Shown: positions 39,301-46,866 of the stretch, one piece after another | Layout: each line of letters starts with the position of its first letter | Position numbering within the stretch: the stretch's first letter is position 1 | DNA from: an uncultured Verrucomicrobiota bacterium | GTDB taxonomy: Bacteria; Verrucomicrobiota; Verrucomicrobiia; Limisphaerales; AAA164-E04 | Direction of reading: 5' to 3' | NCBI GenBank assembly: GCA_964415055.1 | Contig: CAYPZD010000020.1 | Span: 1-51,629 of the forward strand | DNA: 51,629 nucleotides | Notes under the pieces: model-generated | Told to the model about the DNA's origin: nothing | The model's database searches: none | Seen by the model: only the letters and a program-made list of their open reading frames with translations | Made by a program: the position numbers and the translations under genes

Positions 39301-39922
39301 ATTGATGTCTCCGATCACCGCTCTCCTGCGGTTGCCGGAGTTGATGAAGACTCCCATCAGTGGATTGGAAGCAAATGTGAATGTCCAGAATCAGACACTT
39401 ACTCTAAAAGACACCAAAGTGCTTTCAGATGCGTTTCAAGTGCACACAGGCGGGGAGATTCCACTAGCCAATGTATTGACCAACAGTGTTCTGAATCTTC
39501 CGGTTGAATTTCATTTGGAACGTTCCATTGCCAAAAAATCCAACCTCATTCCTTCAAGCGCCCCCAAAGATACACCCTTTGTTAAACTGCCGGATTTCGT
39601 CAAGTTGCAGGGAACGGTTGGCAAACCTGAGACAAAAACCGATAAACTGGTCTTATCCGGATTGTTGGTGAAGTCAGCCGCCGGACTGCCTCTCAATGTC
39701 GGGGAAGGCGCTGTCAATGCGCTCAAGGGAGTGGGCAATTTTCTGGTGGGTGATTCTGGAAAGAAGGAGGAGGATGAAGACGCTTCTGAGGAATCAAAAA
39801 AAGAAGGCCAGGAGGAGCCTTCAACCGGAGTCCTGCAACAAGTCAATCCGTTTAAACTATTCGATCAACTGCGGGGTAATCGGGATAAAAAAGAAGAGGA
39901 ACCATCCAAGGAGGAACAGTAA
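36383..39922 (+). CDS. AsmA-family (repeating beta-groove) protein
   Basis: N-terminal TM anchor, chorein-like segment (LENPTVTIIEREDGSSNL), ~1180 aa beta-rich, AsmA-like C-terminus (NLSG..., VKLQGTVGKP). Confidence 0.8.
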   Translation: MTDPAQHTSQTGGTDDADATKMNPWPKRAAIGGGIGVVILFLAYMAIGSSFFVRSVVLPIVEKSMMAKVSVGGVSFSPFSGIELQDLDFSPADQETMVSAKRASVQYSLGDIIGGTIKLNQLHLENPTVTIIEREDGSSNLTDWLNSLPPSPDAPLPIMDLNDLDVANGTIVYRKMDSSQAGSQVEVALSKAHVSRIGQDLSGNINLESLIRMVKLNGDSNDQEELLSTQIALKGDLDLNDVMFPKNSSLSGSMTVQSTSPAYADLKGVGGAISLSVQPDSIEDVSIHFSKDGQSAGSIELSGPMNFNTLEGDLQLALSGLNRQFLNLAGAIVGLDFGETIVDGTLSCVLTKGASQVAISSVTTAKDFSVAMDGIALPAMDMGLKVVARYDAEQESLLIREWNVNASNDAKTWLEGSIDKPVTLSWGLNRQNFQDSKFQLSIKQMDLVPWSSVLGGVLQQGELNGELDVAFLQQGKRIQASVQSEVSKANFVVSEQTLNDQRIQFEAGLTIQDFTRLLVNHGNMEWTNGSGDVLASVYSSGGYQLDKPGLQFQVDATGNLPLLGSMLPVEGMLIEKGEGKLAARIQQKENGWSGHVQTALSGYTGSFAGVPFQQYSLELGTDGNLQGETFRLGDTQIAFKEGYDLGGSIGVSGELDLSAMKGSFKIQSSGLNRYALQPMLGTNTGEGPFKDVKLNLEGALDLDYSAESSFQGKVDITDLQYEDTATETTQKLMTELGWDLGWTAEKLDIRNGTLRLSPTAKAGNIVKVSGHLPLQPGLASKGALKVSSASLDLTPYMDLLMAQTETSTESPASDTQEKEEPATPTPPPTGEPKPLEVPLGEFDAHVDIGKLFARELSVQDFKGRMLWQTNTLHLEPLSMQVNDGTVKASLHMDFTQPDWGYRMNFDAQNVPVQAITDTLDPANKGKVSGLVLASGDWSGAGLTEPALQRNLSGTMSMQYKDANIELVSPTIRLLMSPITALLRLPELMKTPISGLEANVNVQNQTLTLKDTKVLSDAFQVHTGGEIPLANVLTNSVLNLPVEFHLERSIAKKSNLIPSSAPKDTPFVKLPDFVKLQGTVGKPETKTDKLVLSGLLVKSAAGLPLNVGEGAVNALKGVGNFLVGDSGKKEEDEDASEESKKEGQEEPSTGVLQQVNPFKLFDQLRGNRDKKEEEPSKEEQ

Positions 39923-40324
39923 ATGAAACACATCCATTTCACCGCGTCATTACTCTGTTTGTTGCTGCTGGCTGCTTGCGGTAAAAATGAAGAAACTGCC
40001 GCCACGGAAGATGAACAGAGCCAAACTGAAGGGAACACCTCTTCCTCCGGTAATCCATTGACGGCTCCGGTTGATTATCTTGGGGCAGTGAATACGGCGA
40101 ATAAAATGGCCAATAAAACACTGGAGTTATCCCAGGTAAACAAGGCCTTACAGGAGTATCGCATCCTCGAGGGGCGTAATCCTGCCAGTTTATCCGTCCT
40201 GGTTCAGGAAGGTCTTCTGGCGAAGGAACCCACCGCCCCTTACGGGATGGAGGTCAAATACAACCCACAAACCGGACAGGTGGCCATCGTGCCTGTTCAA
40301 CCCGCTCAGCCCGCGGGGCGTTGA
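39923..40324 (+). CDS. Lipoprotein with pseudopilin/GspG-like C-terminal motif
   Basis: Lipobox LLAAC; ALQEYRILEGRNPASLSVLVQEGLL..P..PYG...Y; abuts the asmA stop (TAAATG). Confidence 0.75.
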   Translation: MKHIHFTASLLCLLLLAACGKNEETAATEDEQSQTEGNTSSSGNPLTAPVDYLGAVNTANKMANKTLELSQVNKALQEYRILEGRNPASLSVLVQEGLLAKEPTAPYGMEVKYNPQTGQVAIVPVQPAQPAGR

Positions 40325-40330
40325 GCGTTT

Positions 40331-40586
40331 TCGTGGTTCCATAACGAGAACTCCCATCTCCGAAGAGATGGGAGCCGGTGCGTGCGCCTCCAAGTTGGCG
40401 GGTGTCGTGCGGACGAGGAAGGTATGTGCGAATACCTGTGCGGTTCCTCGATTGCTGGTTGCTGTGCGCCAGACTTGGATGGCCAGATGGTTTGTTGGTT
40501 AGCGTAATCGATGGAACGAGTTCATCTCCCTTTGTTCTCCTTTTCTCTTTGCTATGATTCAGTTCGTACTATCCGTTCCTATCTCA
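40331..40586 (-). ncRNA. Candidate structured small RNA (sponge-like or 6S-like)
   Basis: Nested complementary segments, six CGCAC motifs, C(UUCG)G hairpin, upstream sigma54-like promoter, no sizeable ORF. Confidence 0.55.
40351..40374 (-). terminator. Perfect 10-bp hairpin with C(UUCG)G loop; intrinsic terminator or structural element
   Basis: CTCCCATCTC-TTCG-GAGATGGGAG followed by TTCTCGTT on the minus strand; may also terminate the + strand operon. Confidence 0.65.
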
Positions 40587-40597
40587 TTTGATAGAAC

Positions 40598-40612
40598 GCA
40601 GACTCGGTGCCA
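40598..40612 (-). promoter_or_regulatory. sigma54 (-24/-12) promoter
   Basis: TGGCACCGAGTCTGC: TGGCAC with exact GG-N10-GC spacing; one mismatch in the TTGC box. Confidence 0.6.
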
Positions 40613-40685
40613 TTCCAGAAAATGAGAGAATTGTAACATGATTGACTTGGTTTTGTGGACTTCTGGAGGCAGGATTGATGTCGTT

Positions 40686-43211
40686 ATGAAATCCACCACA
40701 GCTTGCTTTCGAGATATTTTGCGTCTGTTCGGCCCGGTTTTGTTGTTGATGCTGAGTGTTCAATCCTCTTTTGCGTCCCCCGAAGCTTTTGAAATTGGTA
40801 AATCACAGACCAACATGCTGCCGGGTGGTAAAGAGGCGGACGGTATTGTCGGGGATTTTCTGATGCGAAATAACCTGATTGAGGCCGTGATTTCAAATGA
40901 TGCACCTTTCCGGAAAGCGGACATGGGGGGCTGGTGGGACGCCGTGAGTCCCGGGTGCTTATATGACCTGACACTCAGAGGCGCCGATAATGACCAAATC
41001 ACCGTTTACTCCCCATCCAATCAGCGCGGACCGGTGACTTATGTCAGAGTGGCGGATGCCGGGGAATCGGGTGAGGCTGTCGTTGAAGTGTTGGTGTCTG
41101 CTGCGAGTAATGATGGGGTCGAAATCATTCACCGTTACCAGTTGCGTGACGATTGGCATGGTTTGCTCATTTCGACCCGCGTTCATAATCAATCCGACAA
41201 AGCAGTGGAATTTGATCCCATCGATCAATGGAAACCGACCAATGACAAGAAAACGGTGGCCGGCATCACTCTTTGGGATTCCATTGATCCTGCCGACAAA
41301 TGTGGATACGCCTCGGCATGGATGGAATTGGATGGGTTCATTGTTCCGGGAGTGGAACCTCTGACCATTGAATCGGGACAAAGCATGTCCTGGGCTCGAG
41401 CGATTGCTGTCGGGACTTCTCCAGCTCAAGCGTTTGGTTATCTGGCTGCGTTGAAATCCGGTTCCGGTACCTTGAATGGTATGATAAAAGCGCCCAATGG
41501 CCAGGGAGTAGCCACCGCAGCCGTGACATTGAAACGCGGTGAATCCACATTGACGGCCTATCCAGACTCGGACGGTCAACTGGGGCTGCAATTACCTGTG
41601 GGGGAATATGAACTTGATATCAGTGATATGGGAAGGTCGACAGTTCATCAAACCGTAAACATCACAGCCGACACTTCCACCTCTTTTCAAACGACCATGA
41701 ATTCCCCGTCAAAAATCGATTTTGACATTCGTGATTCGCAGGGACGTTCCATTCCCTGCAAAGTGCAGTTTAAGGGAGTGGAAGGTACAGAGACTCCCAA
41801 CTTGGGCCCGGCAAATCGTGCGCATGGTTGTGTCGATCAATTTCATTCTGAAAAAGGTGTCTTCAGCGTTCAATTGACCCCCGGGAAATATCAGGTGACG
41901 ATCACACACGGTATCGAATTTGGTCACATCCGAAAAATCATCGACCTTCAACCCGAAAGCACTTTGGCATTCAAGGGGCAGTTGAATCGACTGATCGATA
42001 CGAAGGGCTGGGTCAGTACCGATTTTCACAATCATTCCACCCCGAGCGGTGACAACACCACCAAGACGGATGATCGAATCATCAACCTGGCCGTCGAACA
42101 GATTGAATTTGCGCCCACCACCGAACACAACCGTCTCTATGACTGGACCCCGCACATTGAAAAACTCGGATTGACCCGGGAAATCCAGAGCGTGCCTGGG
42201 ATTGAGGTCACTGGGTCGGGGGCTCATTTCAATGCCTTTCCGTTGACTCCGGTTCCATTCACTCAGGATTACGGCGCTCCTCAATGGCAAAAGGACCCGC
42301 GTCTCAACGCCATCGTCCTCCGGGACTATCAGGGAGCAATGCCTGAACGTTGGGTGCACCTCAATCATCCGGACATGGTGGCGGATTTTGTGGATCGCGA
42401 TACTGATGGACGCCCGGACCTGGGATACGTTGGACTTGAAAATCTGGTGGATGCAGCTGAGGTATGGGGGCAGAACATTCTTGCAGACGCGCCTTATTAC
42501 ATCGCCGAGGCCGCCAACAAACAACCGATAGTCCGCAACCATCGTGAGTTTATCTGGAAACAAATGCTGAATACAGGCCGCAAGATGTGGAGTGTGGCCG
42601 TTTCCGATGCTCATTCAGTCCATGGCAACGGGGTGGGGGGATGGAGGACTTACATTCCTTCTTCCACGGACGAGCCCTCCAAAATTGATTGGAAGGAAAT
42701 TGTTCGAAACGCCAAAGCCGGCCGCATGATGATGACCACGGGGCCTTTTCTCGAAGTCACGACCGAGGATGGACAAATCAGCGGTGGCTTCACGCGCGCC
42801 CAAGGATCCATCCAGTTGCATGTTAAAGTTCAATGCACCGATTGGCTACAGATCGATCGCATACAGGTGCTGGTGAACAGCCGTAAAGACCCTTCGCTTA
42901 ACTTCACATCGAGCACACATCCGGATATGTTCCAGAACGGTCGGGTTTCATTCGATCAAACCATTGATGTGCCACTCAGTGAAGACAGCCATCTGATGGT
43001 GGTTGCTTATGGAGAAAACACAGACCTTTCCGTAGGCTACGGCAGCAGTACTCAGTCCTCATGGAAACCCTGTGCCTATCACAATCCCATTTATGTGGAT
43101 GTCGATGGCAACGGGTTTCAACCTAATGGAGACACCCTTGGATGGGAACTCCCAGTGAAACGTCTGGATGTGGACGAAGTCAAATCCATGATTGAACGCC
43201 GCAAACCCTGA
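40686..43211 (+). CDS. CehA/McbA-family PHP-like metallohydrolase, secreted
   Basis: Signal peptide; DFHNHSTPSGD, TTEHN, GAHFNAFP, HLNHP, SDAH; start probably ATG 40686. Confidence 0.85.
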   Translation: MKSTTACFRDILRLFGPVLLLMLSVQSSFASPEAFEIGKSQTNMLPGGKEADGIVGDFLMRNNLIEAVISNDAPFRKADMGGWWDAVSPGCLYDLTLRGADNDQITVYSPSNQRGPVTYVRVADAGESGEAVVEVLVSAASNDGVEIIHRYQLRDDWHGLLISTRVHNQSDKAVEFDPIDQWKPTNDKKTVAGITLWDSIDPADKCGYASAWMELDGFIVPGVEPLTIESGQSMSWARAIAVGTSPAQAFGYLAALKSGSGTLNGMIKAPNGQGVATAAVTLKRGESTLTAYPDSDGQLGLQLPVGEYELDISDMGRSTVHQTVNITADTSTSFQTTMNSPSKIDFDIRDSQGRSIPCKVQFKGVEGTETPNLGPANRAHGCVDQFHSEKGVFSVQLTPGKYQVTITHGIEFGHIRKIIDLQPESTLAFKGQLNRLIDTKGWVSTDFHNHSTPSGDNTTKTDDRIINLAVEQIEFAPTTEHNRLYDWTPHIEKLGLTREIQSVPGIEVTGSGAHFNAFPLTPVPFTQDYGAPQWQKDPRLNAIVLRDYQGAMPERWVHLNHPDMVADFVDRDTDGRPDLGYVGLENLVDAAEVWGQNILADAPYYIAEAANKQPIVRNHREFIWKQMLNTGRKMWSVAVSDAHSVHGNGVGGWRTYIPSSTDEPSKIDWKEIVRNAKAGRMMMTTGPFLEVTTEDGQISGGFTRAQGSIQLHVKVQCTDWLQIDRIQVLVNSRKDPSLNFTSSTHPDMFQNGRVSFDQTIDVPLSEDSHLMVVAYGENTDLSVGYGSSTQSSWKPCAYHNPIYVDVDGNGFQPNGDTLGWELPVKRLDVDEVKSMIERRKP

Positions 43212-44046: not shown

Positions 44047-46728
44047 TCAATCTTCCTTGGATTCCTCTTTTTTGCCTTCCTTGGACGACTCGGCAGGGAT
44101 GGCAAGGGCTTCCAGTTTGTTCTTAAGATCGGCTAATTGGTTTTCGAGAGATTGGTGACTCGATTCCATCTCCTGAATCTTGTTGCGCAGGTTGCGCAGA
44201 TCATCGCCGGGTTGGTTCTGGCGATTGAGGGTGTCGATCGTGCTTCGTGCCGCTTTGTGTTCGGCAGAATCCGGATCAGCACTCAGCCATCCATTCATTT
44301 TTACGATGGCCCTGGAGTCGCCAAGCTTGGCCAAAGCGCGGATGGCTCCCAGGCGGATATTGTTCTTTGGATCCTGTAAATGACCCGTGATGAAACTCAA
44401 GACCATGGACTTGTCCTCCAGATGTCGGCTCAGTTGAGCCAGGGTGGACAGGGCGCTGGAATAGCCTCTTGTCGTGAATTCCTGTTTGCGTTGCATGAGT
44501 GTGTTCAGAATAGGCATGACATAGTCCGCGTCATCCTGGGATTCCATCGCTGAGATGGCGGCCTCGGTCAGACGGTTGCGGTAGGAGGCTTTGTTCAGGA
44601 ATTGAAGCAACACCGCCGGGATTTCCGCATTCCCATAATTTCCAATGGCATTCAGGGAACGACTCACAATCATCGGGTTGGATTCTGATTCCACAACATG
44701 TTTGGATGCGGCATAGGCGTCCGGATGGTAAAATCTCGCGACAGCCGATTGCACAGCATAGCGTACCCGGGCATCATCCTGGTCGCGGGATTCCAGCAAA
44801 GCGGCAAGGGATTCAGGTGTATGCATGCCACCCAGGGCGTCCGCAGCTTCCAGTCTTACTCCGTAAAACGGGTCGTTGTTCAATCGTTCCTTCAATGCTT
44901 CAATGGATTTTTGCGACTTGTTTTTTTCCAGATCCTTGACAGCAAAGACTCGTCCCATGACATCCGACTCATCCTTAAGTTGTGCCAATAGCAATGGCGT
45001 TGGTTTTGAAAAACTGACCTTGGCCAAAAGCGTGTATTCCGGATCGAATCGTACCACTTCAGGTGCATCGGGCAATGGGATGTAGAAATCTTCTGCTTTT
45101 TCACGGATGGTCATCGGGTGGTCGATCACGGCTTCGCTGGTTTTGAAGCGAATGGTGGCCGGGACTTCAAACAGCATGACCTTGTCGCCGATTTTCTGAT
45201 TCTGTTTCACGGAAACTTTTGCCAGTTTCAATTTTGAATCCCAGGAATAGGAGAGACTGAGGTCCGGGTGTCCTCCGTGAAAGACGTATTGATCAAAAAA
45301 TCTGTCAAAGGACTGACCTGACAGCTCTTCAATGACTGCGTTCAGGTTTTCCGTTACCACGACTCCGTAAGCGTGGCGCTCTAGATAGGTTTGAACGCAC
45401 TTGCGATACAAGTCTTCTCCTAACCTTGAACGGAGCATGTGAAGGATCCAGCTTCCCTTGGGGTAGGCTCGGTAACCGAATTGTTCCATGGGCCGATCGT
45501 AAGCGCGATGGACAATGGGAGTCTCATCGCTGTGTCTTCCGGCAAAGCCCCGTGCATTTTTATACATTTGATAAAGGAAGGCATCCCGCCCGTTTTTGTG
45601 TTCTTCGAACAAAGCGTCATAATAGGTGGCGAATCCTTCGTTGAGCCAGAGGTGACTCCAGTCCTTGCAGGTGACGAGATCACCAAACCATTGATGCGCC
45701 AATTCATGTGCGACAAGCCCCTGGCTGGATCGAAGGTTTTCCGTGTCGGAAGTGAAAAGGGTGCCGTCGGTGAGTGAAGTCAGGCTGGTGTTTTCCATGC
45801 CGCCTGCGACGAAGTCGTTGACGCAGATCTGATCGTATTTTGCCCAGGGATACGGCACGCCGATTTCCTCTTCGAAAAACGCCATCATTGCTTTCGTGTC
45901 TTGAAAGGAATTTTGTGCCTGCTCAATTTCAGAAGGCAGGGTCCAGAACGCCATGGGGATATTCTTGTAACGGTCCTCGATTTTGACGAAATACCCCGCC
46001 ACGACGGAGATGAGGTAATTCACGTGTGGCTTGTCCTGTAACCAGGTAAACGCTGTCAGGTTTGTGTTGGGGACTGATTCTTTCGAGGCAAGGTGTCCGT
46101 TGGACAATACTTCCATGCCAGAAGGAACGCGACAGGTGATTTCCGTTGTGAATTTTTCGTTGGGCGCATCAAAAGACGGAAACCAATGACGGGCTTCAAC
46201 CGGTTCGCCCTGGGTGAAAAGATGGGTTTCGCCGTCTTTATACCCCATTTCCGGAGTCCTGAAATACATGCCCTTACTGGGTTCAGCCGAGTGTTCCAGG
46301 TTGATCCAGGCTTCTTCATCAGGGAGGATTGCGTTTTCAAAATCAATGATTACAGCGTCCTCGGATACATGCCAACCGGAGATGGCGTGTGAGGCATTGA
46401 TTTCTCCAAAAGTCAGTTCGACGGCGTCCAATCGCAACTGGTCCAGTGGGTTTGCGATGGGTTTGAAAGTGATGTGGGTGGTGCCGGAGACGGTGCGTTT
46501 CTTGAAGTCCGGCGTGATATCCAGTTTGAGATGTTGGATGTCCACAAAACGGCTGGGGGCATATTTGCGGTGGTCGGGGGAATCCGCCGGCGCCAGAAAA
46601 TGAGCGTGTTTGGTGCAATAAACCTGTTCGAAAAGAGAGGTTTCACTTCGCAGAACGGGTTGAGTGACCAAAATAACGGCCATTCCCAACCAACTGAAAA
46701 CGCGGCTGTAAGCAAACATTGATTTCAT
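44047..46728 (-). CDS. M1 family aminopeptidase with HEAT repeats and C-terminal coiled coil
   Basis: [14 protein letters not shown]...WLNEGFA, YPKG; HEAT repeats; probable signal peptide. Confidence 0.93.
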
Positions 46729-46866
46729 GAGCCACCACTATGGCCAAACCGAAAAGAAATTCAATGGCATTTCGTGTTACTGACTCAGAGTTGTTGATTG
46801 CAAGGAGGTCTTTATGGCAGGGTGGGTGCCATCATAACCCGAAAATCTCAATCACAGGATCATTTA

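Follow-up and report, generated by a model that had tools for sequence, protein, structure and literature searches.

A predicted sigma-54-associated small RNA carrying a cluster of CGCAC pentamers in a lineage of uncultured Verrucomicrobiota

Gene organization of the RNA locus

The window analysed in this study is a 51,629-nucleotide (nt) stretch, contig CAYPZD010000020.1 of assembly GCA_964415055.1, from an uncultured Verrucomicrobiota bacterium whose genome (5.5 Mb, 88.65% complete) is referred to as G000. A congeneric genome, G004, served as the partner for comparison. The spacer that separates two plus-strand genes contains the element under study, a predicted non-coding RNA some 240 nt long; the features assigned to the RNA all lie on the minus strand. 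A first-pass annotation had described the locus as an unannotated structured RNA with a sigma-54-type promoter, and the promoter box, the helices, the hairpin and the six CGCAC motifs that it listed were each found in place. The features are as follows.

40343..40586, minus strand: predicted non-coding RNA of ~240 nt; putative start placed from the GC of the -12 element, putative end from the terminator
40598..40612, minus strand: sigma-54-type -24/-12 box TGGCAC-CGAGT-CTGC, from sequence and alignment (TGGCAT-CAAGC-TTGC in G004)
40562..40600, minus strand: best-conserved block (…GAGAUAGGAACGGAUAGUACGAAC) with the -12 element, the start region and the first ~25 nt of the RNA; 38/39 positions identical to G004
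40573..40583, minus strand: 5' arm of a long-range helix, GAUAGGAACGG, predicted by RNAalifold (columns 18-28 with 82-91)
40510..40519, minus strand: 3' arm of the long-range helix, UCGUUCCAUC (GTTCCAT in the first-pass annotation), predicted by RNAalifold
40520..40561, minus strand: purine-rich spacer with GGA triplets, poorly conserved (25/44 columns, 57% identity)
40389..40479, minus strand: predicted three-helix rod, of the same architecture in G000 and G004 folded separately
40378..40468, minus strand: six CGCAC pentamers (40464-40468, 40438-40442, 40426-40430, 40407-40411, 40382-40386 and 40378-40382), four of them kept in G004
40349..40376, minus strand: 12-bp terminator hairpin GGCUCCCAUCUC-UUCG-GAGAUGGGAGUU, predicted by folding; stem identical in G004
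40341..40350, minus strand: U-rich tail UUCUCGUUAU, U-rich on the minus strand only
39923..40324, plus strand: convergent neighbour, gene for a probable lipoprotein of 133 amino acids (aa), with weak lipoprotein-type N-terminal matches only
40686..43211, plus strand: divergent neighbour, gene for a secreted CehA/McbA-type metallohydrolase with a CarboxypepD_reg domain; frame listed from 40638

Folding and conservation of the RNA

Both the minimum free energy (MFE) fold and the centroid fold predict all three helices of the rod, namely an outer helix UCCAAGU(C)UGG/CC(A)ACUUGGA, a middle helix CGAGGA/UCCUCG and an apical helix AGGUAU/AUACCU closed by the loop UCGCAC. The rod alone gave a fold z score of -3.79, with none of 200 shuffles folding as well, and the rod together with the hairpin gave -5.83. 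For the entire 313-nt spacer the z score was only -1.89, and 3 of 100 shuffles were as good. The hairpin, whose inner stem is CUCCCAUCUC-UUCG-GAGAUGGGAG at 40374-40351, is G+C-rich, and on the minus strand a U-run comes after it, as in an intrinsic terminator. A scan picked out the hairpin of G004, with 12 pairs and the tail TCTTTAATTA, as terminator-like and did not list the G000 hairpin, which has an identical stem.

The RNAs of G000 and G004 are 78% identical overall. At the four-fold degenerate sites of the two flanking genes the same genomes agree at only 32% (53 sites) and 36% (168 sites), which indicates that neutral sites are saturated. Identity is unevenly distributed along the RNA. 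The stretch from the -12 element to about +25 reaches 97% (38/39), the linker with the hairpin 93% and the rod 78%, and directly past the hairpin identity is 38%. This last drop implies that the conserved unit ends at the hairpin. Of the 46 paired positions in the rod plus linker, five differ, and pairing is kept at all of them (two double changes; one A-U pair turned into G-U); among unpaired positions 17 of 58 differ (Fisher p = 0.03). In the long-range helix one pair is replaced in both partners (UA by CG), and two more differ by wobble. Taken together, this comparison of two sequences suggests that the RNA is under selection.

The first-pass annotation had also closed the whole structure, over about 190 nt, with a GTTCCAT/ATGGAAC stem. 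The two segments do pair in the MFE fold of G000; the 3' partner ATGGAAC, however, is absent from G004, and in the consensus fold GUUCC pairs instead with an upstream AGGAAC. The search for homologues that had been proposed was answered in part, as G004 keeps the structure, the GG and GC of the box and four of the six pentamers, and no other relative was found to do so.

The CGCAC cluster

The locus is the sole site in the 5.5 Mb scanned with at least five CGCAC copies per 100 nt on one strand. With a background of 0.00079 per nt per strand, about 0.07 such clusters would be expected. When any 5-mer with three or more different letters was counted genome-wide, six copies within 95 nt occurred in 25 rows (~23 places). 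In dinucleotide-preserving shuffles, six copies of any 5-mer were reached in 0 of 5000 cases for the 113-nt core and in 2 of 5000 for the 240-nt RNA. The cluster shows no tandem repeat, and the RNA region is single-copy in G000, which sets aside the dispersed repeat element that the first-pass annotation had raised as an objection to its own proposal. Apart from this locus, about 22 further places in G000 carry one 5-mer at least six times in 95 nt, for example C10:43941-44044, C31:31123-31234 and C5:87628-87695, and some of these words contain GGA.

In the predicted folds the pentamers are mostly unpaired, lying in the internal loops of the rod, in its apical loop and in the 3' linker, in agreement with their earlier description as loop or bulge motifs. 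In the G004 core CGCAC is again the most frequent 5-mer, with four copies, a number reached for this word by 1 of 5000 shuffles and for any 5-mer by 63 of 5000. Between the two genomes, 3 of 27 unpaired CGCAC bases have changed, compared with 14 of 31 other unpaired bases (Fisher p = 0.008), and the bases flanking the words vary. A short word that is preferentially conserved between variable flanks fits protein recognition more readily than it fits a base-pairing seed.

The sigma-54-type promoter

The sigma-54 consensus is TGGCAC-N5-TTGC, with GG at -24 and GC at -12. Both dinucleotides are kept at the correct spacing in G004, whose -12 element matches the consensus (TTGC). The genome of the window encodes RpoN (Sigma54_DBD at C23:30270-30746) and enhancer-binding proteins, with 11 matches to PF00158 (Sigma54_activat), seven of them at E <= 1.5e-41. 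The relaxed pattern TGGCAY-N5-NTGC fell in crudely defined non-coding DNA in 27 of 131 occurrences, compared with 14/148, 6/108 and 10/121 (6-9%) for spacings of N4, N6 and N7, the crude coding fraction of G000 being 0.879. Among the boxes closest to the consensus is TGGCATACCGGTTGCTT, 54 nt ahead of the ammonium-transporter gene amtB; ammonium transporters are classical sigma-54 targets. The box upstream of the RNA, claimed as sigma-54-type in the first-pass annotation, is thus borne out by its retention in G004, by the presence of rpoN and activators, and by the enrichment of N5 spacing in non-coding DNA. On this evidence the box is probably the sigma-54 promoter of the RNA.

No 8-mers of note were shared between this promoter region and five other candidate promoters, the region upstream of amtB consisting partly of N. 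A sigma-70 site, TCCACA-18-TACAAT (40659-40630, minus), was considered and not adopted; the scan lists none at this place in G004.

Two near-identical canonical boxes TGGCAT(A/G)CCGGTTGCTT occur at C3:41451-41465, 54 nt before the ammonium-transporter gene, and at C98:4429-4443, 85 nt before a gene without a Pfam family; the two may share one activator. A second strict box in the window, TGGCACCCACCCTGC at 46817-46831 (minus), lies in non-coding DNA 89 nt before a gene for an M1-family aminopeptidase (44047-46728, minus).

RNA libraries, strand and ends

Six salt-marsh metatranscriptome runs contain 48-72% of the sampled words of a 551-nt query stretch; they bear six study codes, have one year and habitat in common, and may belong to one campaign. 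Among DNA runs, some contain 65-97% of these words. In all four runs examined, the contigs covering the RNA end at nearly the same place (40564, 40568, 40574 and 40574), and no RNA contig covers 40575-40630. A fixed fragment end of this kind is not expected from contaminating DNA. Measured from the predicted start at 40586, the ends fall 12-22 nt short, as is usual at RNA 5' ends in such libraries; contigs of this kind cannot map a start.

In runs X16 and X17 the contig ends run into 25 adapter letters in the plus direction, which we take to be the adapter found at the end of read 1. In most stranded libraries the first mate comes from the strand complementary to the RNA. A read-1-type adapter in the plus direction, in a common reverse-stranded library, would therefore mean a minus-strand RNA with its 5' end at that place or a few bases upstream. 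The minus strand is favoured by this orientation together with the direction of the promoter box, the side of the U-rich tail and two G-U pairs in the G004 rod, which would be A-C mismatches on the plus strand. Structure alone is indecisive, as both strands fold. We infer that the RNA is independently transcribed from the minus strand, the evidence for strand and ends being consistent but indirect. The earlier proposal of an unannotated minus-strand RNA agrees with the contig ends near the predicted start.

Towards the left, the RNA contigs run on past the hairpin. Single contigs reach 39953 (X16), 39796 (X14) and 39004 (X17), and two overlapping contigs reach 39930 (X18). This may reflect leaky termination or a merging of two convergent transcripts in the contigs. 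The mean word depth of the RNA-bearing contigs was 8.5-73, compared with 2-6 in the neighbours; these values were not used as evidence. In X14 and X16 contigs start at 39796, a site in the 3' end of the AsmA-family gene that precedes the 133-aa gene by 127 nt; it could be the start of the lipoprotein mRNA or the end of read-through from the RNA.

Flanking genes and reading frames

The 133-aa gene sits after an AsmA-family gene. For the hydrolase, the ATG at 40686, which lies ahead of the signal peptide, appears from the sequence to be a likelier start than the listed 40638, so that the spacer would extend to about 40685. The first 48 nt (40638-40685) of the listed 857-aa frame are thus probably non-coding. 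A block in this part, CCACAAAACCAAGTCAATC (40658-40640, minus), matches G004 at every position, and the codons after it diverge.

No reading frame is conserved across the RNA between G000 and G004. The first-pass annotation had stated that no open reading frame of at least 60 aa spans the core; a 67-aa frame with a TTG start (40190-40393, minus) does clip the 3' edge of the RNA. It resembles a G004 frame over the 22 residues that cover the hairpin, and the similarity then ends. An ATG frame of eight codons at 40525 lacks its ATG in G004. The RNA was accordingly rejected as a coding gene.

Distribution among relatives

G004 keeps the RNA (C1:4291030-4291297) in the same gene order, with asmA, the 133-aa gene, the RNA and the hydrolase. 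BLAST found the RNA in 2 of 61 relatives, G000 included, and a full model (R1) and a core model (R2) each recovered it from two of the 22 family genomes. Under stricter filters, R1 matched 1 of 151 genomes of the order, G000 alone (0/150 others). A search with nhmmer of the loci around the 133-aa gene revealed no RNA beyond G000 and G004. Scans with 19-mers returned three loci on metagenome contigs and seven on genome contigs, among which R1 matches one only (L052), with a score of 327 bits, equal to that of G004; the remaining loci were dismissed as chance word matches in other phyla.

The 133-aa gene is present in 22/22 family genomes. The hydrolase gene occurs in five of the 22 and adjoins the RNA in G000 and G004 only. 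In the six remaining species of the genus asmA and the 133-aa gene are retained, and the 1.5 kb downstream of them contains no hydrolase gene, CGCAC cluster or -24/-12 box. Both species that bear the RNA are known solely as metagenome-assembled genomes. These results confine the RNA to one small Verrucomicrobiota lineage, and the idea of a system of Planctomycetes-Verrucomicrobia-Chlamydiae (PVC) bacteria at large did not hold.

In another genome (G010), an RNase P RNA gene (RF00010, 242 bits; L032 2794-3181, minus) lies directly upstream of the hydrolase orthologue and occupies the position that the new RNA has in G000 and G004.

Comparison with known RNA families and partner proteins

At gathering thresholds, Rfam contains no match to the RNA, and the sole Rfam match in the window at these thresholds is a tRNA gene (566-638, minus, 66.3 bits). 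Four weak matches at E <= 10 (sR24, sR33, CRISPR-DR23 and PhotoRC-I; 12-15.5 bits) fall far under their cut-offs and were rejected. In the literature collection covered, a search for a Verrucomicrobia small RNA (sRNA) with sigma-54, or for CGCAC with an RNA-binding protein or sRNA, found nothing on such an RNA.

The alternative named in the first-pass annotation was a divergent 6S RNA (RF00013), which the RNA resembles in its comparable length and in a rod with internal loops. No RF00013 match was found in 40200-40750 at E <= 10, and the RNA differs from 6S in having no conserved closing stem. Elsewhere in G004, at C1:1157649-1157830, RF00013 matches over its full length (44.3 bits), and the orthologue of this locus in G000, C12:14304-14585 (L046 1551-1732, minus), is 94% identical over 282 nt and scores 42.2 bits across model positions 1-187. 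The cut-off of 46.4 bits is narrowly missed by both loci. The C12 locus was missed by the whole-genome RF00013 search of G000 and was found with the G004 DNA as query; it is the probable 6S RNA of G000. A 6S match at E <= 1 was obtained in 14 of the 22 family genomes. Since both genomes carry a separate 6S locus, the RNA is not 6S.

CsrB, RsmY and RsmZ are sponges of CsrA/RsmA that display GGA in hairpin loops. The RNA shares with them a repeated short motif in loops and linkers, presumably titrating a regulator, but here the GGA-rich stretch is the least conserved part (57%), CsrA was not found in G000, and there is no Rfam match. A CsrB-type identity was therefore rejected. CrcZ and CrcY of Pseudomonas, driven by sigma-54 and CbrB, are decoys for Hfq/Crc with an A-rich motif. 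Like them, the RNA is a stand-alone sRNA with a sigma-54-type promoter, a repeated short unpaired motif on a scaffold and an intrinsic terminator; unlike them, it belongs to another phylum, its CGCAC word is not A-rich, no sequence or Rfam match connects the two, Hfq was not found, and binding is here only proposed.

GlmY and GlmZ of Enterobacteriaceae are described as sigma-54-dependent sRNAs of ~200 nt with a long imperfect stem-loop and a terminator, and one of them, GlmY, acts by protein mimicry as a decoy for RapZ (PMC3045617, PMC7073468). The RNA resembles them in these respects but has no Rfam match and no GlrR-type repeats upstream, and no RapZ was found, so this identity was also rejected. 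Repeated pentamers are, to our knowledge, not part of the GlmY/GlmZ paradigm. In summary, the RNA represents a new family, which resembles sigma-54-driven decoys in design and belongs to no described family.

Among possible partner proteins, CsrA, Hfq, ProQ and the N-terminal domain of RapZ (RapZ-like_N) were not found in G000, at its completeness of 88.65%. The genome encodes a single RRM-1 protein (C50:34906-35118). In Bacteroides, which also lacks Hfq and CsrA, RRM-1 proteins are described as binding RNA globally, with a preference for single-stranded stretches (PMC11697453). The accessible text of that report gives for RbpB, which binds single-stranded regions, a 41-nt motif and no short word comparable with CGCAC. 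The RRM-1 protein of G000 is one candidate for the CGCAC-recognizing factor.

Proposed mechanism and alternatives

The results argue strongly that a real minus-strand RNA gene, maintained by selection, lies at this locus. Repetition of a short word at unpaired sites is the arrangement seen in sequestering sRNAs, and the following mechanism is proposed. Sigma-54 RNA polymerase would bind the -24/-12 box at 40612-40598, and an enhancer-binding protein would let transcription begin near 40586. The 12-bp UUCG hairpin and the U-rich tail would end most transcripts near 40345. In the product, a conserved 5' end would be followed by a purine-rich spacer that varies and by the rigid rod with its three helices, on which four to six CGCAC words would be exposed in single-stranded form. 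The RNA would act in trans as a multi-site decoy that titrates a CGCAC-recognizing factor, probably a protein, whose activity would thereby be placed under the signal that drives the sigma-54 promoter. Titration of a factor through CGCAC, as read from the sequence, is a tentative proposal to which we give somewhat less than an even chance, and the complete chain of a sigma-54-driven, trans-acting CGCAC decoy is put forward with the same reserve. That the RNA is a sigma-54-controlled sponge for an undescribed CGCAC-specific factor, in a lineage in which Hfq, CsrA, ProQ and RapZ were not found, is more doubtful still.

Several observations weigh against this interpretation. The sequence comparison consists of two RNAs, and covariation amounts to three double changes; as no further homologues were found, a covariation test of the R-scape type is impossible. 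The plus-strand alignment folds as well as the minus-strand one (-65.4 versus -57.4 kcal/mol), so that the proposed check on both strands confirmed the rod on the minus strand without singling that strand out. The start is deduced from the box, the contigs stopping 12-22 nt short of it, and the assignment to the minus strand assumes common reverse-stranded libraries, contigs themselves carrying no strand. The contigs continue through the hairpin into the 133-aa gene in 4/4 runs. Presence in RNA libraries does not by itself show transcription, nor can contig depth rank genes. The strict pattern TGGCAC-N5-YTGC occurs 16 times in G000, about the number estimated by chance (~21), and no inverted repeats of at least 8 nt, as an activator site, were found in 40600-40850 or in the G004 counterpart. 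Retention of four of six pentamers is close to the expectation without special constraint at the overall identity of the RNA, and only the contrast with other unpaired bases is significant for conservation of the word. No binding partner is predicted; CsrA, Hfq, ProQ and RapZ were not found in the 88.65% complete genome. Moreover, the best-conserved part is the 5' end, which serves as the seed in many base-pairing sRNAs.

This last point leads to the main rival of the decoy interpretation, in which the RNA base-pairs with mRNAs, using its conserved 5' end, the ACAAACCAUCU loop or both as seed; the rod would then be a scaffold and the CGCAC words incidental or additional seeds. Many sRNAs do carry a 5' seed, and here the first ~25 nt are the best-conserved part of the RNA (38 of 39 columns, counted with the -12 element). 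The ACAAACCAUCU loop is identical in both species, and sigma-54-driven base-pairing sRNAs such as Qrr are known (PMC10162802). The conserved 5' block, however, is partly promoter and start region and partly paired inside the RNA, and base-pairing leaves six copies of one pentamer with variable flanks unexplained. Perfect 10-nt complements to the RNA occurred in 89 of 3850 crude initiation regions, compared with an estimated ~94 by chance; no part of the RNA stood out among them save its own antisense, and GTGCG was not enriched near start codons. As the gene starts are crude, these negative target searches are weak. Base-pairing through the conserved 5' end is, in our judgement, only a little less likely than the decoy interpretation.

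A role in cis would take the form of antisense read-through over the 133-aa gene, of interference with the divergent hydrolase promoter by a sigma-54 closed complex or by transcription, or of a long plus-strand 3' untranslated region of the lipoprotein mRNA. The unbroken contigs leading from 40564-40574 leftwards over the hairpin and the 133-aa gene would fit such a role, as would the joint occurrence of RNA and hydrolase at this site solely in G000 and G004 and the equally good fold of the plus strand. Strandless contigs, however, can merge convergent transcripts that overlap at the hairpin, and the adapter orientation points to the minus strand in both informative runs. On the plus strand, 40564-40574 is not preceded by any hairpin with a U-run, and no U-run follows the hairpin at 40349-40376. 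The fall to 38% identity past the hairpin, on the 3' side of the minus strand, places the end of the conserved unit at that point. A cis role is accordingly regarded as improbable. A further alternative is a divergent 6S RNA, which would sequester the RNA polymerase holoenzyme by mimicry of an open promoter. It would loosely suit the size and the rod, and is favoured by the whole-genome RF00013 search of G000, which gave nothing. Against it, the 551-nt region gave no match, each of the two genomes has its 6S locus elsewhere, and the closing stem is unconserved, which makes this explanation extremely improbable.

If the decoy interpretation is correct, the RNA would belong to a protein-titrating sRNA circuit, the first to be described in PVC bacteria, with a new recognition word. 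Its sigma-54 promoter would link it to a signal-dependent activator. Post-transcriptional control in Verrucomicrobiota is almost unexplored, and since the usual partner proteins of sRNAs were not found in this genome, a conserved RNA with a repeated word offers a handle on the RNA-binding factor that may fill their role.

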